The notes beneath the pieces are model-generated. The model made no database searches and was not told the origin of the DNA. It worked only from the letters and a program-made list of their open reading frames with translations. From Alphaproteobacteria bacterium (GTDB lineage: Bacteria; Pseudomonadota; Alphaproteobacteria; SHNJ01), in NCBI GenBank assembly GCA_004295055.1, contig SHNJ01000007.1:73081-137080 (forward strand): 64,000 bases of DNA, written 5' to 3'. Position numbers and translations under genes: made by a program. How positions within the stretch are numbered: position 1 is the stretch's first letter; the number at the start of each line of letters is the position of its first letter. Below, piece after piece: positions 15,102 through 39,946 of this stretch.

Positions 15102-15323
15102 AAATAAGTTATTGTTAAATATAGGTTTTTTGTTTGTTTTATAGCAAAATTAGGGTAAGAGGTGCCTTGGGTGGGCAAAAAATTCCCAGTCTATATCAAG
15201 GATTTAGATGTTGATTTGGCGTTGCATAATTATTGAATTTGGCCGGATTGGGGACATATTTATCTGGTATGGTATAGTAGCTAGTGTAAAACTCCGATAT
15301 TCTATTAAAGTTCAGCGTAGTTC

Positions 15324-15746
15324 ATGAAAATCAAATCGACGGATTCCGTCAGTTCCAGTGTTGGCGTTCGCAAAGCCGGCAAGACCAAGTCTGCCGGAGG
15401 CAGCAGTTTTGCCAGCCATTTGCAGGAAACCGAAGAAACGCAGGGCGTGATGTCCACGTCCGCGGTAAGCAATGTTGATTCATTGCTTTCATTGCAGGCT
15501 ATGGGATCTTCGACGGATAAAAACACCAAAGCCAGGCAGCATGGAGAAGAGGTTCTGGATGTGCTAGAGCGCGTATTGCACGATTTGTTGGCTGGCGGCG
15601 TGCCCGTTTCGCGTTTGCGAAATCTAGCGGATATGATGCAACGCCAACGGGAATACGCTGGCGTTAGCCCTAAAATGCTTGAAATCATCGATGAAATTGA
15701 AACGCGGGCTTTGGTGGAATTGGCCAAATTGGAAGCCTATTTATAA
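15324..15746 (+). CDS. fliX: FliX-like flagellar regulatory/assembly protein (divergent from flgI as in Caulobacter)
   Basis: Ser/Gly-rich N-terminal half, conserved C-terminal helical region ending EIETRALVELAKLEAYL; divergent arrangement with flgI; family call from memory only. Confidence 0.45.
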   Translation: MKIKSTDSVSSSVGVRKAGKTKSAGGSSFASHLQETEETQGVMSTSAVSNVDSLLSLQAMGSSTDKNTKARQHGEEVLDVLERVLHDLLAGGVPVSRLRNLADMMQRQREYAGVSPKMLEIIDEIETRALVELAKLEAYL

Positions 15747-16349: not shown

Positions 16350-18902
16350 TTATGCGTTTGGCAATAGATGCTTGTTGAGGATTTTCTCTACGGTGGCTAG
16401 TTGCACTGGCTTGCTGATGTAATCATCCATTCCGGCATTCAGGGATTTTTCGCGATCGCCTTCTAATGCATCTGCGGTTAAGGCAATAATTGGGTGACGT
16501 TTAGATTGATTTTCCCTTTCTTTCGATCGGATAAGGTTCGTGGCCTGAAAGCCATCCATTTCCGGCATATGAAAATCCATAAAAATTAAATAATAATCTT
16601 TTTTCAGAAACATATCGACCGCTTCGACGCCATTGCTAGCCACATCGGTATTGCATCCGAATTTGGCCAGTACGCTTCGCATCAGCATTTGATTGATGGC
16701 CATGTCCTCGACTACCAGAATATTGCGATTCTGAAATTGGAGAATGTTGTTTTTGCGTTTTTCAGAAAGACGTGGATCCTGAAAAATGCTTTTAATAAAA
16801 TTACGTGTGATGAAATCAGTTGGTTTATTGCTGCTGATTCTGTCCCAAATTAAAATAATGGTTTGCTGAATTTCGGTGGGGTAATAAGGTTTAGTTAACA
16901 TTCCGGCAAATCCGATGGATGACAATTCCTGTTGATTTCCAGCATAAAGATGGGAAGTTAATAGAATTAAGGCTGTATTTTTGATTTTAGGGTTGGCTTT
17001 TATTCTTTGGGCAAGGGTTTTTCCGTCCTGATCCGGCATACGGTAATCTAGAAGGGCAATGTGATATGGCTCGCCTTTGTCCGCCATTGTTATAAGTTCT
17101 TGATAAGCGGCTTCGGAACTATTAACCGCATTGTGGAAAATATTCCAGTTATGACAATAGGCCGCTAAAATATCCGCACTAACAGGATAATCGTCGACAA
17201 TTAGTAAGCGTACAGAAGATATATCTTTTTTCTCCAGTATGAAACCGCTGGTTTCCTTGGCGCCAGGCGCGTTGCTGGCTATGGTAAATGGGATAGTAAG
17301 ACTAAAAGTGGATCCTTCTCCGAATCTGCTGTTTGCAACAATATCGCCACCCATCATCTCGGTTAATTTCTTGCAAATGGTTAACCCCAAACCACTTCCA
17401 CCAAACCGGCGGGTGGTAGATGCCTCGGCTTGGCTGAAAACAGTAAAAATATGGTCTATTTTATCTGGTGAAATGCCGATACCGCTGTCTTTAATTTCAA
17501 AAGTGATAGAGACTTTTTCCTGATCAATGGATTTTGTTTTTATTTCCAATAAAACATAACCCTCCAAGGTAAATTTCAATGCATTACCGAGCAGGTTGAG
17601 CAGTATTTGCCTGACGCGTACAGGGTCGCCAATCAAATTTTCAGGAATCTCGTTGCTGGCATACATTAATAATTCAAGATTCTTTTCTTTGGCCGTAACA
17701 GCCAAAAGATCCATGCATTCTTCAATGATTTTGGATAGGCTGAATGGAATGGATTCTAAGGTAAATTTACCGGCTTCGATTTTGGTAAAATCCATAATAT
17801 CATTGATTAATGTAAGCAAGGAATCGCCGGACCGGCCGACTATTTCCGCCCAGCGCCGCTGTTCTTCGTCCAAATCGCTGTCTAGGAGTAAAGAAGTCAT
17901 GCCTATGACAGCATTCATTGGCGTTCGTATTTCATGGCTCATATTGGCTAGAAATTCGGATTTCGCCGCGCTTGCTTTTAATAATAAGGTATTGGTGGCA
18001 GCCAGTGTTCTGACCGTTTGGTATAACATTATTAGAATAGCAGTGACGTAGCAGATCAAGACTAAAGATAGTAGAAATAAACCAATATTATAAAATACTT
18101 CTGCATTGCGGGCAATGTCCGATCTTTGTGCAATTAGAGAGTTTAGTTCATTCAATAAGTCCTTATTTTCTGGAGCTAATAATTGTTTGGTCAAGTGCAG
18201 AACATCCACATGAGCATTAAGAATAATTCTGATATGTTTTGCCATATATTCCAAACTTTTCTGGTCATCGACAGATAAGCGATAAGGAAAGTGGTCTATA
18301 TTTTTAAGCGCCTGCTCTACATCGAGTCTGCTTTGCTCTTCCCCATCAATGAGGAATAGTAAAGTTGCCTGGTATAGCGCATCGATTTGAAACGCGGCGT
18401 TATGCTGGTTCTTTTTATGTAGGGCCACATCAAGTTCTTGATATATCGTGGGCATATATTTGGCGGAGTTGCGCAGAATGGCATTTTTCGCCTTGAATTC
18501 TTCTAAGGTAGCTTTGCGGACATTATTAAATTCAATATATTTTTCAATGCCGGATTTTATAGACTGTCCAATAATCTGATATTGGCGAGAGTTATATGGA
18601 GATGGGAGAAGAAAGGAAGCGGATATTTGGTTGGTGGTCTCGATTTCTTCTTGAACGACCAGTGATGTTTCATTAATTGCCTGGGATAGGTGTACTAAAC
18701 TATCATAGTTATTCAATAGATTGTTCTTTGCCAATAAAATATTTTCATTCAACTCCGAATTCAAGCTTCGTAGAGTTAGCAACTCATTAAATATGGCAGA
18801 GTAAATATTTCTGGATGACCAATAAGATTGGTAGAAAAAGAAGCAGACCCCGGCGGCCAGGATTGAAATGAAGAAAAAATGCCTTTGAAGGGAATGTTTC
18901 AT
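16350..18902 (-). CDS. Hybrid sensor histidine kinase with periplasmic sensor domain (2 TM), HisKA/HATPase core and two C-terminal receiver domains
   Basis: H-box [21 protein letters not shown]-box motifs, two REC domains ([14 protein letters not shown]... and [13 protein letters not shown]...DFHMPEMDG); AT-rich codon usage. Confidence 0.85.
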
Positions 18903-18904
18903 GA

Positions 18905-19867
18905 CTACTCTGGGACAGGCAATGTGCCAGTTAAAGTTTTAAGGAATTCAACCAGCTTGTGGCGTTCATCAGCCGATAAGGTGCGGCCCAGTTGGTATTT
19001 GGCCATAATATCGACCGCTTCTTCCAAGGTTTTAGCGGTACCATCGTGAAAATAAGGCGCCGTTTTATTTACATTGCGCAGTGATGGAACTTTAAATACA
19101 TATCGATCTTCTTCTCTATGAGTAACGTTAAAGCGTCCATTATCTTCCTGCGTTAAATTTCCACGATCTTTGAAGTAATCACCAACAATGCCGAATTTCT
19201 GGAACATATTGCCGCCGACATTTTCCCCCTGATGGCATGAAGAACATCCCAAATCTTTGAACAATTTATATCCCGCCTTGGCATCTGCAGAGATTGCAAG
19301 TTTCTTGCCCGTTAAGTATTGATCAAATGGCGAATTAATAGGAATAAGGGTGCGTTCGTAATTGGCGATAGCATCTTTGATATTCTTTTCTGTCGGGGGA
19401 GATTTATAAACTTCTCGGAATGCATCGGCATATTCCGGTATTGTTTTCAGCTTGGCAATAATATCGGGCCAAGTATTGCCCATTTCGTCTGGATTTAAAA
19501 TCGGCCCATTAATTTGTTCTTCTAAAGTCGCCGCGCGGCCGTCCCAGAATTGCGCTAAATTAAGTGCGCTGCCCCAAATCGTAGGTACATTGATAAGCAG
19601 GTTTTTTCCGCTTACGCCTTGGATCGGATAAGGTGCATTTAAAGCGCCGCTATTTGCGATATCGTGACAAGAGGAGCAAGAAAGTTTATCGTTCTTGGAC
19701 AGCCTTGGGTCATGGAATAACTTCTGGCCCAATTTTGCACGTCCATGATCCAGTCCTTTTATGGATGTGACGGGTTGAATAGGTTCATTGCTATAAGACG
19801 TGTGATCCAAACCCATGGCGCAGGAAGGAAACAATAAAAGACAAAGAATAAAGTAAATATAGCGCAT
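18905..19867 (-). CDS. Di-heme cytochrome c peroxidase (CCP/MauG family), secreted
   Basis: Signal peptide; two CXXCH motifs (CSSCHD, CSSCHQG), conserved FWDGRA and PYFHDG; stop overlaps the kinase start (ATGA). Confidence 0.85.
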
Positions 19868-19895
19868 TATTTCAACAGGTTTGTTACAGGGAAAA

Positions 19896-20237
19896 TCATT
19901 CTGAGTTGTTGGTGCTGAGTAAGGCGGATTTAACCAGGCCGTATTCTTGTTCTAATAAACGGAGAATTTTTTGCTTTTCCTCCGGGCTGGTCATGTACTG
20001 ATCTTGCGCATTTTTGCATATATCTGCCAGTTTCTCAGCGCCAAGATTGAGGCTGATGCCTTTCCATGCGTGCGCATGGCGTTTCCATTGTTCGGCGTCA
20101 TTTGGGCCTGCAGTTTGCTGCAGATGACTTAGGCATTCTTCCGACGAATCTAGAAAAACATTGAACAATTGCTTTTCCAAATCGATATCGCCACCGGTTA
20201 ATTCCCTAAGATTGGATAAATTCAGAATTTGATTCAT
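19896..20237 (-). CDS. Histidine phosphotransfer (Hpt) domain protein
   Basis: HAHAWKGISLNLGAEKL matches the Hpt H-x-x-KG-S/A signature; 113 aa. Confidence 0.7.
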   Translation of the reverse strand: MNQILNLSNLRELTGGDIDLEKQLFNVFLDSSEECLSHLQQTAGPNDAEQWKRHAHAWKGISLNLGAEKLADICKNAQDQYMTSPEEKQKILRLLEQEYGLVKSALLSTNNSE

Positions 20238-21241
20238 GAATTTCCCTTTGCCTCTTGGCGGGTGTTTTTGTTCGCCGCCAAATACCGATTAACATAAGAC
20301 AATATTTTTTGTTTGCTAAAAGGCTTGACCACAAAACCTTTGACGTTGTTTTTACGGGCAATTTCCACATCATCGACCGAATGATGGGCGGTGACCATTA
20401 TTAAATGCGCGTTGTTGTCTAATTGCTCAATTTTCTGCGCCAGTTCATGTCCGCTGCCGTCTGGCAATTCAATATCGATGAATGCTATATCTGGCACTAT
20501 TTCCAGGTATAAGCGCCATGCTTCCTCTAATGTTCCTGCGGTGTTTACTTGGAATTTATAACCAAGAATTCCGTACAGCAACTGTTGAGAGAATAATTGG
20601 TCTTCCACAATTAATATGCGTATGTGCTGGCGCCCGATCCGCTGCAATTTGGCACTCATAAAATGCTCTATTTGCTGATCGGTGTGATGAAGACTGGCTT
20701 GGGTAATGGCGCGAGATGTTTTTTTCATGGGGTCTATGGAGGTAAGTTTTGTGGGGATGGATGCTGGTTTGGTATCGATGTCAACTAATTTTGCGGAGTC
20801 GGTTATCTGCTTATTCGGTTCTTCGGGTGAAATGGGAATCGGAAGATCCAGGTCGACTTTCAAAAATTTTTTAAGGAATAGGCTTAGTTCATCGGCCATC
20901 AACTGAGCATCGAAATAGGTAAGAACATCGTCGGTTGTTTTTTCAAACTCCGGTTTCAACATATGTGGGATGATAATGGCTCTTAATTTTTCATAAATAC
21001 GTTTTGGCATGCCGCACCAGGCCAAGTATACATCCCCATTTTCCATGAAAAAAATGCGCGCATCCACGGCGCTATGCATGGCTTGTTTTAAGGTGATCAC
21101 AAATTGATCTTGCGGTATGCTGGTTAGGTATTGTGTCCGAATATTCACAATACTCCACGCGCTGGTATGATTGATATTGATTTCTCTAATCAGTTCAATC
21201 AGCGCTTGCTCGGCCTCATGTTCTGTAATTCCAATCAGCAT
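20234..21241 (-). CDS. Response regulator with C-terminal receiver domain and uncharacterised about 200-aa N-terminal domain
   Basis: C-terminal REC (IRILIVEDQLFS...IDIELPDGSG...MVTAHH...KPF); no family recognised in the N-terminal part; stop overlaps the Hpt start. Confidence 0.75.
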   Translation of the reverse strand: MLIGITEHEAEQALIELIREININHTSAWSIVNIRTQYLTSIPQDQFVITLKQAMHSAVDARIFFMENGDVYLAWCGMPKRIYEKLRAIIIPHMLKPEFEKTTDDVLTYFDAQLMADELSLFLKKFLKVDLDLPIPISPEEPNKQITDSAKLVDIDTKPASIPTKLTSIDPMKKTSRAITQASLHHTDQQIEHFMSAKLQRIGRQHIRILIVEDQLFSQQLLYGILGYKFQVNTAGTLEEAWRLYLEIVPDIAFIDIELPDGSGHELAQKIEQLDNNAHLIMVTAHHSVDDVEIARKNNVKGFVVKPFSKQKILSYVNRYLAANKNTRQEAKGNS

Positions 21242-21409
21242 ATGGGCGCACTATAATTTTAGAAGAAGTAAAGGTTCCACTCTTTTATCATATTCTTTCA
21301 TGGCTAACATCTTACTAAAGGATGCGCGAATAGAAAGAAAATATACAACTATATGGTGTATAAGTCTTGGTCCATACATGGGTAAGAAAATACAATTGTA
21401 TTTCATACA

Positions 21410-21448
21410 AAGAAAAATGACCGGTTTAATCCGGTCATAAGTTTTTTT
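21410..21448. terminator. Bidirectional rho-independent terminator (ATGACCGG-TTTAAT-CCGGTCAT flanked by A-run and T-run)
   Basis: Perfect 8-bp stem with TTTTTTT on the plus strand and TTTTTCTTT on the minus strand; lies between the flgH 3' end and the phosphorelay operon. Confidence 0.55.
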
Positions 21449-27757: not shown

Positions 27758-28150
27758 GTGTTGATGACTGTCGACAAAGAAATCCCAATTTTGATAGTTG
27801 ACGATTACAAGACGATGTTGCGTATTTTGCGGGGCCTTCTAAATCAATTGGGGTTTCGTAATATTGAAGAAGCCACGGATGGAAAAACCGCTATGGCTAG
27901 ACTCCGTAACGAAGCTTTCAGTCTTGTGATATCGGACTGGGGAATGGAACCCATGGACGGCCTGCAGTTGTTAAAAACTATCCGTGCCGATGAAAAACTG
28001 AAAAAAATACCATTTATTATGGTAGCTTCCGATACCAAGCCCGAAGATGTGATGAAGGCCAAGCAAGCCGGGGTATCCAATTTTATTTTAAAGCCATTCA
28101 ATGCGGACACGCTGAAAAGTAAATTGATCAGCGTTTTGGGTCCGTTTTAG
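27758..28150 (+). CDS. cheY: CheY-like single-domain response regulator
   Basis: ILIVDD...LVISDWGMEPMDGLQLLKTIRA...KP closely matches the CheY signature (DWNMPNMDG in E. coli). Confidence 0.85.
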   Translation: MLMTVDKEIPILIVDDYKTMLRILRGLLNQLGFRNIEEATDGKTAMARLRNEAFSLVISDWGMEPMDGLQLLKTIRADEKLKKIPFIMVASDTKPEDVMKAKQAGVSNFILKPFNADTLKSKLISVLGPF

Positions 28151-28254: not shown

Positions 28255-31200
28255 TTGGCCTTATTCATGCTGCGTTTTCTTAGAGTATCGATTTTATTTT
28301 TGGGAATTTTGCTGGCGCCATTTTTGGCGCATGCGGCCGATGTGTCCGCGTCTATGCAAAACGACACGGCAACTATTCAGTTCGATTTGGATCAGGACTC
28401 AGGCTATACCGCAAAATTGGCGGGGGGGTCGCTGATCGTTAGGTTCGAGCAGCCGCAAAATATAGAACCGCGTAAAATAAAGCCGGCCTTAAAAGCGTTA
28501 GTTAGCGAGGCAATCTTAAGCGGCGATAAAAAAACCTTGATTGTCGGGCTTACTCATCCGGTTGCGGTTTTGGATGAAAAGGTAGGAAAAACAATCACTA
28601 TTACCCTCTTGCCGCCGTCGGCTGCCGCCACAATGGGAGATGGAAAAAAACCGGCGAAGCCTCCAAAGCCGGTTTTATCGGCAGGCACAGTTAAAATTCG
28701 TGCGGCCCGTCACCCGGATTTTTATCGCACCGTTTATGAATGGCCGGAGAAGGTGGGATATCATTTAGAAGAGCAAGGTCGCCACGCCACTGTGGAGTTC
28801 GAGGCGATTGTTCCAATCCCATCGCAGGAATTGAATAAAATCAAAATACCCGACTGCGAAATGGCATCGCCGATTGTATCAACCACCACGACGAAAATTC
28901 AATTTGAATGCAAGGATTCAATTTCCATCCGGCATTATGCCAAAGAAACGACGGTTGTCCTGGATTTTGCTATGCCGCCACCCGCCGCGCCGGTAAAAAA
29001 GCCGGAAGCCGCGGCTGAACCTGCTCCAGAAGCACAAAAGGCCGAAGCTAAACCTGTTGAACCGCCAAAGCCGGAAGTGCCAGTCGATCCTAAGGAAGAA
29101 GCCAAATTTGCTTTGCCTAGTGTGGATTTGAATCCTCAGGCTGAAGTTACGCCGCCACCGGAACAGGTGCCGCCGCCTTTGGTAGAAGAAGTGCCCGATG
29201 ACCCGCTGGAAGTACAGAATGTGGAATTGGTGGCCAGCAAAACCAGCACGGTATTAAGTTTCAAGGCTGTATGGCCAAAATCGGTGGGCGTGTCCATTTT
29301 CAAACGCGCTGGATTCGCGTGGATGGTGTTTGACCGCCCAGCGACTATCACGATGAATCCCGAAACGCAGTCTGTGTTGAACATTATCGGGGGCATGGAA
29401 ATTGTCAAAGGGCCAACATCTACCGCCTTGCGTATCCATACCGTTACGGGCTTGGAACCGACTGTACAGGCCTCGCCAGACCGGAAGATATGGCAAATTG
29501 ACTATAAATCACAAAAAATCCGCCCAGCCGTAACTATTCCGGCTGAGTATAAAGAGTTTGCCGACAGGCAATTTGGATTGTACCTGACCGTTCCAAGTTC
29601 CGGCCGGGTTATGCAATTGACCGATCCAGAAGTTGGCGATCAAATTATTGTTGCAACGGTAAATATTCCTGGCCGGGGCGTGAATGGCGAACGCAATTTC
29701 AGCGAATTTGCCCTGTTGCCGTCCGCCCAAGGCATTGCCGTGGTGCCTAAAGTATCGGATATAGAAATCCGTCCGGATTTCGATGGATTTATGGTTGTTA
29801 AAAAATCTGGTGTATTATTGTTGGCGCAAAATAAGCCGGTCGAAGTAACCGATCCTAACAAAGCCAATCAAAAAGACGTTTATGGTCCGTGGGTAAATGA
29901 AGGGCCGCCAAGCAATCCTGCGATTTTAAAATATGCGGAATGGCGTGGCGATCCAAAAAAAGGCTTTTTTGATAAAGAGCAGGATTTGCTTGCTGAATTA
30001 GGCAAGTTTAAGCCCGAAGAACGCTTAGACAGGCGAATGGATTTGGCTAAATTATATTACAGCTATGGCTGGATGGCCGAAGCCATCGCGGTATTGAATG
30101 TCAATGCGCAGTGGGATGAAACTTTGGCTCGTGGCGCGGAATTTCTAGCTATTCGCGGATCGGCTTATATTATTGAACAAAATTACAAGCAAGCCACCGA
30201 AGATTTAAAAGATCAAAGATTTGACGAACAGCCGGATATTGCTACTTGGCGCGCGGTATTGGCGGTGCAACAAAATGATTGGGCGGCGTCGGATCAATAT
30301 TTTACCATGTCAGATGAACCGAATGATGCGCCGCCGGCCAACGCCAAGAAAATGATCGGTCTTGCGCAAATTGAATCTGAAATTAATAACAATCATTTAG
30401 ATCAGGCCAAAACTATTATTGATCGCCTGGATAAAGATGCTGAATTGGTGAAAATGCACGATATTCTGAATTACTGGCGGGGCGAGATCGCAATGCGCGA
30501 AACCAAGCCAGAAGAGGCGGTTAAATTATGGGAAGGCGTCGTTAAAAATGAAGAACCATATGCCCGTCCTCGTGCGGAATTTGCGCTGATTAAATATGGG
30601 GAGTCGACGGGCGAGTTAAAACGTGAAGATATTATCGCGCGTTTGGAACGGCTGCGTTTTGCCTGGCGAGGCGATAAATTTGAATTCAATGTCTTGCAGA
30701 TGCTGGGCCGGATGCAGATCGAAGACGGTCTTTATCGCGAAGGCTTGTTCACATTGCGCCGGGCGGTCACCAATTACGCCGATCAGCCTTATGTGGTCGA
30801 ACTGACGGATATGATGACCGATACCTTCAAGAAACTGTTTATGGAAGGCGCCGCCGATAACATGCCGCCGTTGACCGCGCTGGGGCTGTTCGATGAATTT
30901 CGCGATTTGACCCCAACTGGCCCCGATGGCGATAAAATTATTCAGCGTCTGGTTGATCGCTTAATTGCTGTCGATTTGTTGGAACGTGCGGCTGATTTGC
31001 TTTCGCACCAGGTCAATTATCGCTTGCAAGGCGAAGACAAGGCACGGGTAGGGGCCAAGTTAGCTTTTGTCTATATTGCCGACCGGAAGCCAGTAGAGGC
31101 AGTCAAAGCCTTGGATCTAAGCAACGCACCGCAAATTCCAGCGGAATTGGCTGCAGAGCGCCGTTTACTGAAGGCGCGCGCGTTGTTTGATCAAAATAAA

Positions 31201-31671
31201 CCGCAAGAAGCATTGGATTTGATCGCGGCCGAGAAAAGCCGGGAGGCCGACATGCTGCGCACGGATATATACTGGCGGATGCGCAATTGGGGCATGGTGG
31301 CTGAAAAATTGAATCGGTTGATTGTGGAATCTCTGGACGATGAAGAAAAACAGCGTCAACAATCGGATCAGCCAGCACCTGCCGAGCCGGCTAAATTATC
31401 TCCACAGGTCGCCCAGTGGGTCTTGAACTTGGCGATCGCGGCGGCGCTGGACGGCGATGACGATGCCTTGAAGCACATCAAACGCAGCTATTGGGCTAGA
31501 ATGAAAACCTTGCCACAATTTGAGGCGTTTGAAATTATTACCAGTGTGGACGCGAACGAACCGCTCAGCCTGGCCGAATTGACCGGCAAGCTGGATGAAG
31601 CGGTAAAATATGAAAACTTCATGACCTTCTATAAAGAGAAGATCAAAAAAGGCACTTTCGCAATTAATTAG
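28255..31671 (+). CDS. Large secreted protein (1138 aa): signal peptide, Pro/Ala/Glu/Lys-rich linker, beta-rich middle, C-terminal TPR-like helical repeats; candidate periplasmic flagellar scaffold
   Basis: Sec signal MALFMLRFLRVSILFLGILLAPFLAHA; Pro-rich PPPAAPVKKPEAAAEPAPEAQK...; C-terminal 500 aa with repeated helical hairpins; embedded between cheY and fliP. Confidence 0.6.
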   Translation: MALFMLRFLRVSILFLGILLAPFLAHAADVSASMQNDTATIQFDLDQDSGYTAKLAGGSLIVRFEQPQNIEPRKIKPALKALVSEAILSGDKKTLIVGLTHPVAVLDEKVGKTITITLLPPSAAATMGDGKKPAKPPKPVLSAGTVKIRAARHPDFYRTVYEWPEKVGYHLEEQGRHATVEFEAIVPIPSQELNKIKIPDCEMASPIVSTTTTKIQFECKDSISIRHYAKETTVVLDFAMPPPAAPVKKPEAAAEPAPEAQKAEAKPVEPPKPEVPVDPKEEAKFALPSVDLNPQAEVTPPPEQVPPPLVEEVPDDPLEVQNVELVASKTSTVLSFKAVWPKSVGVSIFKRAGFAWMVFDRPATITMNPETQSVLNIIGGMEIVKGPTSTALRIHTVTGLEPTVQASPDRKIWQIDYKSQKIRPAVTIPAEYKEFADRQFGLYLTVPSSGRVMQLTDPEVGDQIIVATVNIPGRGVNGERNFSEFALLPSAQGIAVVPKVSDIEIRPDFDGFMVVKKSGVLLLAQNKPVEVTDPNKANQKDVYGPWVNEGPPSNPAILKYAEWRGDPKKGFFDKEQDLLAELGKFKPEERLDRRMDLAKLYYSYGWMAEAIAVLNVNAQWDETLARGAEFLAIRGSAYIIEQNYKQATEDLKDQRFDEQPDIATWRAVLAVQQNDWAASDQYFTMSDEPNDAPPANAKKMIGLAQIESEINNNHLDQAKTIIDRLDKDAELVKMHDILNYWRGEIAMRETKPEEAVKLWEGVVKNEEPYARPRAEFALIKYGESTGELKREDIIARLERLRFAWRGDKFEFNVLQMLGRMQIEDGLYREGLFTLRRAVTNYADQPYVVELTDMMTDTFKKLFMEGAADNMPPLTALGLFDEFRDLTPTGPDGDKIIQRLVDRLIAVDLLERAADLLSHQVNYRLQGEDKARVGAKLAFVYIADRKPVEAVKALDLSNAPQIPAELAAERRLLKARALFDQNKPQEALDLIAAEKSREADMLRTDIYWRMRNWGMVAEKLNRLIVESLDDEEKQRQQSDQPAPAEPAKLSPQVAQWVLNLAIAAALDGDDDALKHIKRSYWARMKTLPQFEAFEIITSVDANEPLSLAELTGKLDEAVKYENFMTFYKEKIKKGTFAIN

Positions 31672-37360: not shown

Positions 37361-39946
37361 TTGAAAAATAAGTCTTTTTTTACCCTCTATTTTTCGGGCC
37401 GTGTTCCTGTGCTGTTAAAAGGCGAAGAAATTAAAACCGATGATCCATCCAGCAAGCAAAATCGCGCGGTGCTGGTAAGTCCGATTCTATGGTTAACCGG
37501 CGCGACTTTGGCGGCCAGTTTTTATCTGGTATTTTATTATTTTTTTACCGAATACGATTTCCCAAGCGTTCTTTTGTATATTTTTACCGGCATTTCGGTT
37601 TCGCTGGCTATTATTCTATGGTTTAGCTTGCGTCAGTTCCAAATGCTGCAACAAAGTGTGGTCGAATCGCAGATTTATCGCGACGCGTTTGAATATGCTT
37701 ATGACGCGCAGTTAATCTTGAATCAAGACGGGCGAACTTTTTCTTCGAATTTTTCCGCGGGGCGTTTTGCCACCAATAAAAACGAACCTTTGCTCGCGGC
37801 GCTCGATAAAATGATGATCGAAGGCGACCGGGAAGGGCGCTATAACCTTTCTGTTTTGCGCAGCAGCGCCGCCGAAGGCAAAAGCGGCGAAGTTTCCACC
37901 CGTATTTATTCCCCGACCAATTATAATGCCAGAATGCTGGTTGCGGCTGCGCCGTTAAAGGGTTTTCGCGGCATGTCCGTTTGGCGTATCGTCCAAAACG
38001 CGCAGCGCAGCGGGACGCATCAGGATCTTGCGCCGGAATTAGCCGCCCTGCAATATGTGATTGATCAAGTTCCGATCGGTATTTTTACCCTGGGTGAAGA
38101 AGGTATTATGTTGGGTGTCAATAATACCATGGCGGAATGGTTGGGTTGGCCGCCGGGGGAAATCGTCAGCAAGAAATTGAAGATCGACGAGTTTTTGATT
38201 GCGCAAGGGGAAGGCGATGTTAATGCCGCTGAAGAAAAATCCAATCAACCGGAAATCTGTTCAGTCACTTTGAAAGATAAAAAAGGCGGCACGTTTAATG
38301 CCACCTTGGTAAAGGTAAATTTAAAACAAATCTCTGCTGATAAAACGCATGAAAATCCGATTCGCGGCGGTGGGCTGATTATACGGCATATGGATAACAA
38401 CCTTGCGTTGGAATCAGCCTTTAAACGTTCGCGTTTATTATTCAAACGCTTTTTCGAAGACGCGCCGGTGGGTATCGCTTTGGTTGATTTGAATGGCCGC
38501 ATTACCGAAGCAAACCGGACTTTCCGTAAAATGATGGAAAAAACCTTGGGTAAGGTCGAAGGCCGGGCGGTGGCCGATGCGATTAAAAAAGATGATCGCG
38601 AACGTCTTGCCAATATCTTCACTTTTGCCATGTCGTCCACCGACATGTTGCCAATTTTGGAAACCAAGGTTTTAACGGCACAGGAAAAAGTCGCTTCGTT
38701 GTATATCAGCCGGCTCGAAGACGAATATGGCGTCGTGGTCGGATTCGTTATCCACTTTGTCGATGTGACGGAGCAGAAGAACCTCGAAGTCCAATTCGTG
38801 CAATCGCAAAAAATGCAGGCGATCGGCCAACTGGCTGGGGGCATCGCGCACGATTTTAACAATATTCTTACGGCGATTATGGGATATTGCGATTTGTTAT
38901 TGCTGCGCCATCGTCCTGGCGATCAGTCGTTCGGCGATATTCAGCAGATCAAGCAAAATTCCACCCGTGCGGCTAATCTGGTGCGGCAATTGCTTGCGTT
39001 TTCGCGCCAACAGCAATTGAAGCCGCGTGTATTGAACATTACGGACATTCTGTCCGAATTGGCCAATTTGCTTCGCCGTTTGATTGGCGAGAATATCAAG
39101 CTGAACATTACCCATGGTCGCGATCTTGGTCTGTTAAAGGTCGACCAGGTGCAGTTCGAACAAGTGATCATCAATATGGTCGTTAACGCGCGCGACGCTA
39201 TGCCAAAAGGCGGCGAGCTGTCGGTGCGAACCCAAAACGCCACATTCGACGCGCCGGTAAATTATGGGTCTGAGGTAATTCCAGCCGGCGAATATGTGCA
39301 GATCGATGTCAAGGATACCGGCGTCGGCATTCCAAAGGAAAACCTGACCCGTATTTTCGAACCGTTCTTTACCACCAAAGGTCCGGGGGCGGGTACTGGC
39401 CTTGGGCTTTCAACAGTTTATGGTATCGTTAAACAAACCGGCGGATTTATTATCGTCGATTCCACCATCAATGTCGGCACGACATTCACCGTATTTTTAC
39501 CACGCCATATGGGCGGCGAAGAAGCGCAAGCAAAACCGGAAGCTGAAAGCGACGATCAGAATACCAGCGATTTGACCGGCGTCGGCACAATCTTGCTGGT
39601 CGAGGACGAAGACGCGGTTCGTTCGTTCAGCACCCGCGCACTGCGGAATAAAGGATACAAAGTGCTGGAGGCACCGAGCGGCGATGCGGCGTTAAAAATG
39701 ATTATCGAAGACCGTCCGAAATTGGATTTACTGGTGACCGACGTTATGATGCCGGGCATGGACGGCCCCGCCTTGATCCGCGAAGTGCGTAAAATCATGC
39801 CGGATATCAAAGTGGTTTGCATTTCCGGTTATGCCGAAGATACGTTGCGCGAAAAAATCGGCGGCGATCAAAATATTCATTTCTTGCCGAAACCGTTCAG
39901 CCTGAAACAGCTCGCCGGCAAGGTGAAAGAGCTGATGGGGGCGTAA
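37361..39946 (+). CDS. cckA: CckA-like membrane hybrid histidine kinase (TM region, PAS domains, HisKA/HATPase, C-terminal receiver)
   Basis: H-box [21 protein letters not shown], ATPase G-boxes, C-terminal REC ([11 protein letters not shown]...DVMMPGMDG...KPF); architecture as in Caulobacter CckA. Confidence 0.65.

Follow-up and report, generated by a model that had tools for sequence, protein, structure and literature searches.

A response regulator whose receiver lies at the C-terminal end raises two questions: what is the domain that precedes the receiver, and is it the output of the phosphorelay encoded beside it? Such a regulator is found in the window, the whole 64,000-nt stretch of alphaproteobacterial DNA analysed here. 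According to the ORF list and its translation, the gene occupies positions 20234-21241 of the minus strand and runs from ATG to stop over 335 aa; the plus-strand frame of the same interval is full of stops. The start is secure, since only three codons lie between the ATG and the in-frame stop before it and the MLI... N-terminus is kept across relatives. The sequence is identical to NCBI TAH37567.1, 'MAG: response regulator [Alphaproteobacteria bacterium]'. From N- to C-terminus the protein displays an N-terminal domain (N-domain), a linker, a helix and the receiver.

The receiver matches Pfam PF00072 at residues 209-317 (E 2e-19, 70.2 bits against a cut-off of 30.2), which places it at the C-terminus, as the first-pass annotation had it. 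Its key residues are present: an acidic pocket formed by E213-D214, the phospho-acceptor D256, T284 on strand 4 and K306-P307 on strand 5. Across 23 relatives D214, D256 and K306 never vary and T284 reaches at least 90% conservation; judged by these residues the receiver is intact. A conserved helix at residues 188-201 runs into the receiver in the AlphaFold2 model, and a long C-terminal helix extends to residue 333. Helix, receiver and C-terminal helix, delimited by PF00072, the invariant columns and the model, are encoded at 20237-20680 (minus strand).

The pre-receiver helix is preceded by a disordered linker rich in Pro, Ser, Thr and Lys, at about residues 131-187 (20681-20851, minus strand), as delimited by pLDDT and the alignment. 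The AlphaFold2 pLDDT is below 50 at residues 130-178, and the linker is poorly conserved and varies in length and sequence among aligned relatives. The N-domain, residues 1-130 (20852-21241, minus strand), is compact, with a pLDDT of about 90 and a predicted order of strand, helix, strand, short helix, helix, beta-hairpin, helix, strand, helix. At a pTM of 0.52, the full-length model does not confidently predict that the N-domain docks on the receiver.

No Pfam family matches residues 1-205 of the regulator, and NCBIfam matches are confined to the receiver and the stretch immediately preceding it, with none in the N-domain. PDB sequences compared with the N-terminal region gave no match (best E 0.22 with the single sequence and 0.5 with a profile). 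A sub-threshold similarity to DUF7570 at residues 170-213 is present in one of 23 members and was rejected as chance; a literature search on DUF7570 found no paper that mentions it. Literature searches on C-terminal-receiver regulators and uncharacterised output domains gave no paper that describes the N-domain family, as judged by titles and abstracts. The initial proposal was of an unrecognised N-terminal domain of about 200 aa. The absence of Pfam, NCBIfam and PDB matches agrees with this, but the domain comprises about 130 aa and the rest is linker and helix. At the level of sequence the N-domain is a previously uncatalogued domain.

The N-domain is not peculiar to this protein. An exhaustive phmmer search with residues 1-205 against 1.84 billion representatives returned 31 cluster representatives; a word-indexed homologue search with the same residues returned only the query itself and one 67% relative. 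One candidate relative, P0015 (1067 aa, 12 'stretches'), proved to be a translated low-complexity repeat and was discarded. Complete family members are nearly all 285-330 aa long, with the N-domain at residues 1-125, and every one carries a C-terminal receiver. An iterated N-domain profile recovers 95 of the 98 N-terminal regions of such proteins from 80 alphaproteobacterial MAG loci. Of 5337 ORFs it matches 97, each of which carries a C-terminal receiver; 1960 shuffled sequences gave no match. At least about 100 regulators of uncultured Alphaproteobacteria carry the domain, in MAGs that are Rickettsiales-like, Rhodospirillales-like and Micavibrio-like. The suggestion that it may be a new effector domain fits a region that is conserved, uncatalogued by sequence and always N-terminal to the receiver, although at about 130 aa and not 200.

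Is the N-domain a second, degenerate receiver, so that the protein would be a REC-REC regulator like FrzZ or the N-terminal half of PleD? The motifs 'MLIxxxE' and 'Y-x-D-P' superficially resemble receiver strand 1 and the strand-5 K-P, and the first N-domain HMM weakly matched inside the receivers of four distant homologues. However, the domain displays neither a CheY-like (beta-alpha)5 fold nor similarity to REC profiles. Fold and profile comparisons reject a pseudo-receiver, which the first-pass annotation had named as a case that would refute it and which we regard as most improbable.

Foldseek comparison of the N-domain with PDB structures revealed no confident match to a known output domain; nothing was significant (best E 0.033, TM 0.3-0.43), and generic ferredoxin-like folds were listed first. 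Acylphosphatase/ACT-like structures at the top of the list (probability 0.66-0.87, E at least 0.04, 82-91 columns) have only the ferredoxin core in common with the N-domain and were rejected; the acylphosphatase phosphate-loop motif was not seen in the N-domain sequence. The best structural neighbours of the N-domain model are GGDEF cyclases and polymerase palm domains, which align with 97-111 of its 130 residues, versus 75-85 for the generic ferredoxin-like matches. With hhalign, a profile of 121 N-domain sequences aligns with GGDEF profiles over 73-75 columns at E 0.03, a score that alone is not significant, and does so in the register that the fold would predict; a 26-sequence profile gave E 0.17 and 0.27. 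The GGDEF profile PF00990 matched none of 26 N-domains at E<=10. On the strength of the model, the N-domain is tentatively predicted to fold as a GGDEF/palm-like alpha-beta sandwich, for which the reference order is helix, strand, two helices, hairpin, helix, strand, helix.

The N-domain hairpin reads N68-G69-D70-V71, and its tip, N68-G69-D70, lies at the position of GG[DE]EF in diguanylate cyclases. The GG[DE]EF active-site motif itself is absent from this hairpin. R35 aligns with the first Asp of the GGDEF DxD, such that an Arg replaces the strand-1 metal-binding Asp. An RxxD I-site is not conserved in the family, and the stretch five residues before the hairpin reads H-S-A-V-D-A-R. To judge from these motifs, the N-domain has lost what it takes to synthesise c-di-GMP or to bind it allosterically. 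Family-wide, W29 and D70 are conserved. The close clade has an invariant W75, and conservation of G77 and D111 there is at least 90%. In the wider family the hairpin consensus is D-G-D-[IV] (D 69%, D 74%) and D111 is also conserved. This acidic hairpin, together with D111, could form a metal or ligand site or retain residual catalysis and not be a pure interaction surface.

An active enzyme is one alternative. On this view a palm-type nucleotidyl cyclase or transferase, strongly diverged, would bind the catalytic metal with its acidic hairpin and be switched on when phosphorylation drives dimerisation through the receiver; PleD, WspR and DgcR work in this way, with their domains in the opposite order. 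The structural neighbours point in this direction, and the most conserved polar residues of the family, including D70 of the target, sit in what would be the palm catalytic-acid hairpin. N-domain proteins also occur as tandem paralogue pairs in about 25 loci, which would fit an obligate dimer. Against this, there is no conserved acid on the palm motif A/DxD strand, N68 of the target replaces the first hairpin Asp, the domain, at about 130 aa, is without the C-terminal strands that a full GGDEF domain has, a substrate-binding motif could not be recognised and the profile similarity is insignificant. An active enzyme is unlikely. The reading we prefer, that the regulator is a phosphorelay acceptor with an uncatalogued GGDEF/palm-like, non-catalytic effector domain at its N-terminus, may well be right.

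The operon provides the context for the acceptor role. The regulator is the first of four genes tightly packed in one minus-strand unit. Its stop codon is overlapped by 4 nt by the start of a gene for a 113-aa Hpt phosphotransfer protein (19896-20237, minus strand; PF01627, E 8e-11) with an H-x-x-K-G motif (HAWKG). The third gene (18905-19867, minus strand) encodes a 320-aa di-haem cytochrome c peroxidase/MauG-family protein (PF03150, E 8e-53), whose N-terminus resembles a signal peptide and whose CxxCH motifs lie at 64 and 208; it is part of the operon only in the window and at loci L001/L002. The fourth (16350-18902, minus strand) encodes an 850-aa hybrid histidine kinase, for which Pfam, sequence and hydropathy give the order TM, periplasmic DAHL, TM, HisKA (H323), HATPase, REC (D619), REC (D776). 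This kinase does not have an Hpt domain of its own. A literature search on DAHL-domain histidine kinases gave no match. On the upstream side, a terminator-like hairpin with a T-run (21417-21438, minus strand; identified by a consensus scan only, and in the sequence) directly follows flgH and separates the flgFGAH unit from the cassette. The spacer at 21242-21416 would hold the promoter of the cassette.

An H-box hybrid kinase with Asp-bearing receivers, a separate HxxKG Hpt and a receiver protein are thus all encoded at one locus. On paper, the operon would constitute a canonical multi-step His-Asp-His-Asp phosphorelay. Among relatives the Hpt gene lies directly downstream in most close ones, or is fused to the neighbouring kinase, and the adjoining hybrid kinases have interchangeable sensors (DAHL, MHYT, GAF/PAS or permease-fused). 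MHYT sensor kinases, a truncated globin and a di-haem peroxidase-like protein are among the family neighbours; these are types linked to oxygen, NO or redox sensing.

Whether the regulator is the terminal output of this relay, as was first supposed, is less certain. Receivers of the same sub-type also occur as stand-alone proteins of 130-170 aa with Hpt directly after (L009, L011, L013-15, L017-18). Given these relatives, the N-domain is an add-on to a REC-Hpt unit; the receiver can work without it, and the regulator may modulate phosphate flux and not be the output. It may then be a phosphate sink, a branch point or a connector of the Hpt, with the N-domain serving localisation or oligomerisation only and another regulator being the output. 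In the window this would perhaps be the 130-aa CheY-like protein encoded at 27758-28150; other clades would use the sigma-54 activator that lies adjacent. In the tandem-paralogue clade a sigma-54 activator of the REC-AAA+-HTH type is divergently encoded at 22 loci, and the flagellar cluster of the window also encodes another receiver-only protein. Additional single receivers are found beside the family member at L003. However, throughout a deep family the N-domain shows clear purifying selection (W75, G77 and D111; W29 and D70) and is never lost within the family proteins of about 300 aa, and the regulator is the sole non-kinase receiver protein in the window's operon. The sink or branch role is a minority possibility, though one to be taken seriously, and it weakens the assignment of the regulator as terminal output.

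For the preferred non-catalytic effector, the following sequence of events may be envisaged. The membrane DAHL hybrid kinase would autophosphorylate on H323, possibly working with the co-encoded periplasmic di-haem protein. Phosphate would then pass from H323 to the receiver(s) of the kinase, to the separate Hpt and to D256 of the regulator, the direction being the presumed one. The N-domain, tethered by the 55-residue flexible linker, would offer a surface for protein interaction, dimerisation or the binding of a small ligand, and phosphorylation of the receiver would switch its availability. Such a switch is modelled on PhyR and the PatA type, in which an N-terminal output likewise precedes a C-terminal receiver. 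What the analysis shows is the anatomy of the domains, the conservation of the family, the make-up of the operon and the loss of catalytic motifs; the course of phosphate transfer, control of the N-domain by the receiver, the kind of target and any link to the flagellum are inferences.

In two genomes a flagellar gene cluster surrounds the cassette. A tblastn search with the window's flagellar proteins against the 80 family loci gave matches only at L001/L002 and L069. Apart from the window, the flagellar neighbourhood recurs only in the closest relative (67-71% identity) and at a single distant locus, and is a lineage-specific context, not one of the family as a whole. A bolder proposal is that the N-domain represents a new functional class of palm-fold signalling domain, a nucleotidyl cyclase or transferase or else a nucleotide second-messenger receptor acting via the acidic D-G-D hairpin, which is switched by the receiver and here couples a periplasmic haem or redox signal to the flagellum; we hold this to be improbable.

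Output domains define how two-component pathways act, and censuses of them rest on catalogued domains. The N-domain is absent from Pfam and NCBIfam and has no solved relative by sequence. Its boundaries and the conserved W29, D70, W75, G77 and D111 provide a handle for binding and interaction screens.

Among known systems, the PatA-type regulators (PatA, PixG and PixE), in which PATAN (DUF4388, PF14332) is followed by a C-terminal REC, have their architecture in common with the regulator. PATAN is a proven output domain that binds PilB1/PilC (bioRxiv 10.1101/2021.06.11.447907). If the N-domain were a diverged PATAN, the regulator might bind a motility motor, with the flagellum in place of type IV pili; the N-terminal output, long linker and C-terminal receiver are alike, the PatA-type output binds a motility machine, and in the window the regulator adjoins motility genes. 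However, an output-then-receiver architecture is insufficient for membership, since it is common to several unrelated families, and the flagellar context is not conserved in this one. PatA itself matches PF14332, but the 26 N-domains do not, even at E<=10, and neither do 23 full-length members; hhalign against a profile of real PatA orthologues, a shallow one (Neff 2.8), gave E 0.33-0.44. Size also differs, PATAN in PixE having about 250 aa with an alpha-clip insertion (bioRxiv 10.1101/2021.06.11.447907) versus 130 aa here. PatA-type proteins are cyanobacterial and deltaproteobacterial and are fed by Che-like kinases, whereas the N-domain family is from uncultured Alphaproteobacteria and the regulator's operon has a hybrid kinase and Hpt relay. 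With no sequence or profile similarity between the two, a diverged PATAN is very unlikely.

PhyR, a regulator of the general stress response with a sigma-like domain followed by a C-terminal REC, is alphaproteobacterial and has its output before the receiver, as does the regulator. Its phosphorylation releases the N-terminal domain for partner binding. However, the fold of the N-domain is not sigma-like; NCBIfam NF006623 (PhyR) aligns with residues 183-325 of the regulator only (32.5 bits against a cut-off of 240), and no NepR- or EcfG-like genes were seen nearby. In the HptB-HsbR-HsbA system of Pseudomonas aeruginosa, a stand-alone Hpt and an atypical receiver protein are encoded beside flagellar genes and are fed by several hybrid kinases, and the system acts on a flagellar regulator by partner switching. 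In HsbR the PP2C and kinase-like outputs follow the receiver; the regulator has no homologous output domain, and no STAS or anti-sigma partner is encoded at its locus.

The remaining comparison is with the degenerate GGDEF proteins (the BcsE GGDEF*, LapD, PelD and FimX, with PopA as a further example), which are non-catalytic and function as receptors or interaction modules. Their domains of about 160-170 aa are larger than the 130 aa of the N-domain, which shows no PF00990 match, only the hhalign similarity given above and no significant Foldseek score. Their route to c-di-GMP binding is the RxxD I-site that the N-domain does not have, and the N-domain precedes the receiver and does not follow it. 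Should the GGDEF-like fold prove real, the cyclase/palm scaffold would again have been recycled as a non-catalytic effector, and in this family in the unusual order of output, then receiver.

The regulator gene is a 335 aa open reading frame, from ATG to stop, at 20234-21241 on the minus strand; the plus-strand frame over the same coordinates has many stops. An in-frame stop is found 3 codons upstream of the ATG, and the N-terminus MLI... is kept among relatives. The translated sequence is identical to TAH37567.1, which is annotated merely as 'MAG: response regulator [Alphaproteobacteria bacterium]'. The first-pass annotation had placed a receiver at the C-terminus, and this is borne out: the only above-threshold Pfam domain is an intact receiver at residues 209-317 of 335 (70 bits vs a cut-off of 30), with D214, the phospho-acceptor D256 and K306 invariant in 23 relatives and T284 at least 90% conserved. 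It had also described an unrecognised N-terminal domain of about 200 aa. No Pfam family indeed covers residues 1-205, but the compact domain, here termed the N-domain, comprises residues 1-130 only and is followed by a linker and a helix.

The N-terminal regions of 26 family members were scanned with Pfam, and none gave a match at a threshold as loose as E<=10. NCBIfam matches to the regulator are confined to the receiver and the stretch just before it, and neither the single sequence of residues 1-205 nor a profile found a PDB chain (best E 0.22 and 0.5). A sub-threshold DUF7570 match, seen in 1 of 23 members, is attributed to chance. Among the titles and abstracts searched, no paper describing the N-domain family was found.

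AlphaFold2 models from alignments of 23 and 26 sequences predict a compact N-domain (pLDDT about 90; pTM 0.83 when modelled alone), tethered by a disordered, poorly conserved linker (~131-187) rich in Pro, Ser, Thr and Lys (pLDDT <50 for 130-178), and a conserved helix, 188-201, that continues into the receiver. The full-length model has a pTM of 0.52, thus no fixed arrangement of N-domain and receiver is predicted. The modelled N-domain consists of strand 3-6, helix 10-24, strand 29-34, a short helical turn, helix 44-54, a beta-hairpin (60-65/71-76), helix 79-94, strand 107-111 and helix 112-128, i.e., a predicted ferredoxin-like beta-alpha-beta-beta-alpha-beta core with flanking elements.

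The N-domain family has one copy in the window. A word-indexed search returned the regulator itself and one relative of 67% identity, and nothing more. With residues 1-205 as the query, an exhaustive phmmer search through 1.84 billion representatives found 31 matches, one of them a spurious repeat protein. Nearly all complete matches are 285-330 aa long, with the N-domain at 1-125 and the receiver C-terminal; the shorter ones look like fragments. A scan of GTDB species genomes yielded 80 loci, and in 79 of these the MAG titles are alphaproteobacterial or generic Proteobacteria/Pseudomonadota (Rickettsiales, Rhodospirillales, Micavibrio, Pseudobdellovibrionaceae, or unclassified). The remaining locus, L058, bears a Pseudomonadaceae title, and the protein that it encodes was not recruited to the family. 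By an iterated N-domain HMM, 95 of the 98 N-terminal regions of ~300 aa 'X-REC' proteins in the 80 loci form one family; the profile matched 97 of 5337 ORFs, every one with a C-terminal receiver, and none of 1960 shuffled sequences. Two atypical members were seen: a 255 aa protein with a shortened N-domain-like region and a receiver, encoded beside a canonical member (L003, 6630-7397, minus strand), and a 403 aa protein that has, besides N-domain and receiver, ~110 additional aa at its C-terminus (L073, 8429-9640, plus strand).

Every member of the close clade has W75, and conservation there is at least 90% for G77 and D111; Y109 likewise reaches at least 90% among 23 full-length members. Family-wide, W29 is conserved at 72% and the two Asp of an acidic hairpin, D-G-D-[IV], at 69% and 74%.

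Structural neighbours of the N-domain include degenerate BcsE (scores 8.1/8.0), 3qyy (7.9), LapD (7.5), PelD (7.2), SiaD (7.1) and FimX (6.9), all GGDEF-type, and interleaved among them are palm domains of reverse transcriptases and RNA polymerases (AbiA 7.9, RSV L 7.5). Generic ferredoxin-like proteins reach 6.5-7.9, but over an aligned length of only 75-85 residues. Foldseek against the PDB gave no significant match (best E 0.033), with acylphosphatase, ACT and NikR on top and GGDEF domains also listed, at TM 0.41-0.43.

For profile-profile comparison, GGDEF profiles were made from five E. coli K-12 cyclases and then enlarged with 12 alphaproteobacterial GGDEF-EAL proteins. A 26-sequence N-domain profile gave E 0.27 and 0.17, respectively, and a 121-sequence profile gave E 0.03 with the GGDEF profiles. 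The alignment spans 73-75 columns in the register that the fold predicts: strand 29-34 falls on the l-x-x-D-x-D strand, the hairpin on GGDEF and helix 79-94 on the next helix. In this register R35 occupies the position of the first metal-binding Asp, N68-G69-D70-V71 stands in place of G-D-E-F, and the N-domain has no RxxD I-site. Cyclase and I-site motifs are lost, and the N-domain lies outside the GGDEF family by every defining motif. Its predicted fold is a palm/GGDEF-like alpha-beta sandwich, and it is probably a very diverged, truncated relative, with homology short of proof. The best-conserved polar residues in the family are the acids of the hairpin, and for this reason the N-domain could be a catalytically active, novel palm enzyme, which we consider improbable.

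The regulator gene is the first of a tightly packed minus-strand unit. It overlaps by 4 nt the gene of an Hpt protein (HAWKG motif), which is followed by the gene of a di-haem CCP/MauG-family protein (18905-19867, minus strand) with a signal-peptide-like N-terminus and CxxCH at 64 and 208, and then by that of a hybrid kinase, also on the minus strand, with the order TM, DAHL, TM, HisKA (H323), HATPase, REC (D619), REC (D776) and without its own Hpt. The parts of a relay are complete. The periplasmic di-haem protein may be a redox/peroxide co-sensor for the DAHL kinase; this CCP-in-relay-operon arrangement, with CCP and DAHL genes together, is common only to the window and the closest relative (L001/L002, 67-71% identity).

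Flagellar genes flank the unit on both sides (flgF-G-A-H, fliL-fliM, dksA, fliX, flgI, flgK, flagellin, fliP, fliR and flhB), and a terminator-like hairpin, by consensus match only, follows flgH just upstream of the regulator. The 67% relative has the same order: flgH, the regulator-Hpt-CCP-DAHL kinase genes, dksA-fliX-flgI. The four-gene cassette (16350-21241) has a GC of 0.414 vs 0.477 in the rest of the window, about 6 points lower, and that of L001 (10001-14913) 0.432 vs 0.493 in its flanks. This drop, and the position between flgH and dksA-fliX-flgI, where the cassette splits a flagellar cluster that is in other respects typical of Alphaproteobacteria, are consistent with an acquired or inserted module. 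A flagellar target had been proposed, for which only gene position in two closely related genomes speaks; among homologues, flagellar genes neighbour only the 67-71% relative and one distant member, L069.

Other features of this region should be noted. At 15305-15746 two ORFs, each of 140 aa, overlap in opposite orientation, the minus-strand one without a Pfam match; the real fliX is probably the plus-strand ORF 15324-15746, because the syntenic PF10768 FliX gene of L001 is opposite in orientation to the regulator. A 1138 aa ORF beside the flagellar genes (28255-31671, plus strand) has no Pfam match at E<=0.001, and its L001 counterpart just a 'faint' TPR match. A second hybrid kinase, PAS-HisKA-HATPase-REC, of 861 aa (37361-39946, plus strand) follows flhB, and a 130 aa CheY-like single receiver (27758-28150, plus strand) follows fliL-fliM-DUF6468; either might engage in cross-talk with the Hpt.

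Across the family three contexts are found. In the regulator's own clade, A, an Hpt gene lies directly downstream and a hybrid kinase recurs with a variable sensor: DAHL in the window, MHYT in L003, L004 and L007, and a permease-fused kinase in L008; in L003 the Hpt is fused to the kinase. In clade B (about 25 loci: L019, L021, L023, L026, L033, L037, L038, L048, L055 and ~15 more) the family is represented by two paralogues in tandem, with the gene of a PAS-kinase-REC-Hpt protein after them, and divergently from these lie the genes of a truncated globin and of a sigma-54 activator of the form REC-AAA+-HTH. The cluster resembles a sensing module of the O2/NO type that contains a pair of family members. 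Clade C, Micavibrio-like, has a single member in conserved housekeeping synteny. In 12 of its loci (L051, L054, L059, L062, L065, L066, L070, L072, L075, L076, L078, L079) a GGDEF-EAL protein of 720-780 aa, with the motif G-E-D-E-[FY], is encoded upstream on the opposite strand, 1-4 and most often two genes away, and in most of these GTP cyclohydrolase I lies directly downstream. The GGDEF-EAL neighbour could reflect a c-di-GMP link or mere synteny.

Stand-alone receivers of the regulator's sub-type, 130-170 aa long, are found in L009, L011, L013-L015, L017, L018, L027 and L029 (131-171 bits with the family receiver profile), with an Hpt directly 3′ wherever tblastn detected one (L009, L011, L013-L015, L017, L018). 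Since such receiver-Hpt pairs exist without the N-domain, receiver, Hpt and hybrid kinase make up the conserved core, to which the N-domain is joined as an extra module. These stand-alone pairs, and the sigma-54 regulators encoded nearby, also favour the main alternative, in which the regulator serves the Hpt as a branch or sink and the N-domain is there for localisation or oligomerisation; we hold this to be rather unlikely. To a relay-controlled regulator with a non-catalytic, partner- or ligand-binding N-domain we give about even credence. Phosphate would pass from the kinase to the Hpt and on to D256, phosphorylation would alter how available the N-domain is or its oligomeric state, and the N-domain would act non-catalytically on a protein partner or bind a small ligand.

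The best-known regulators with an N-terminal output and a C-terminal receiver acting on a motility motor are of the PatA type (bioRxiv 10.1101/2021.06.11.447907). A PATAN identity was rejected at the sequence and profile level (PF14332 never matches; a profile of real PatA orthologues gave E 0.33-0.44), as was PhyR, whose NCBIfam match is limited to the receiver region. Response regulators that combine an atypical N-terminal output with a receiver at the C-terminus, within a relay of hybrid kinase and Hpt, are a kind already known. The N-domain family itself is uncatalogued: an orphan signalling domain that is conserved and well defined, and for which the fold assignment is plausible.
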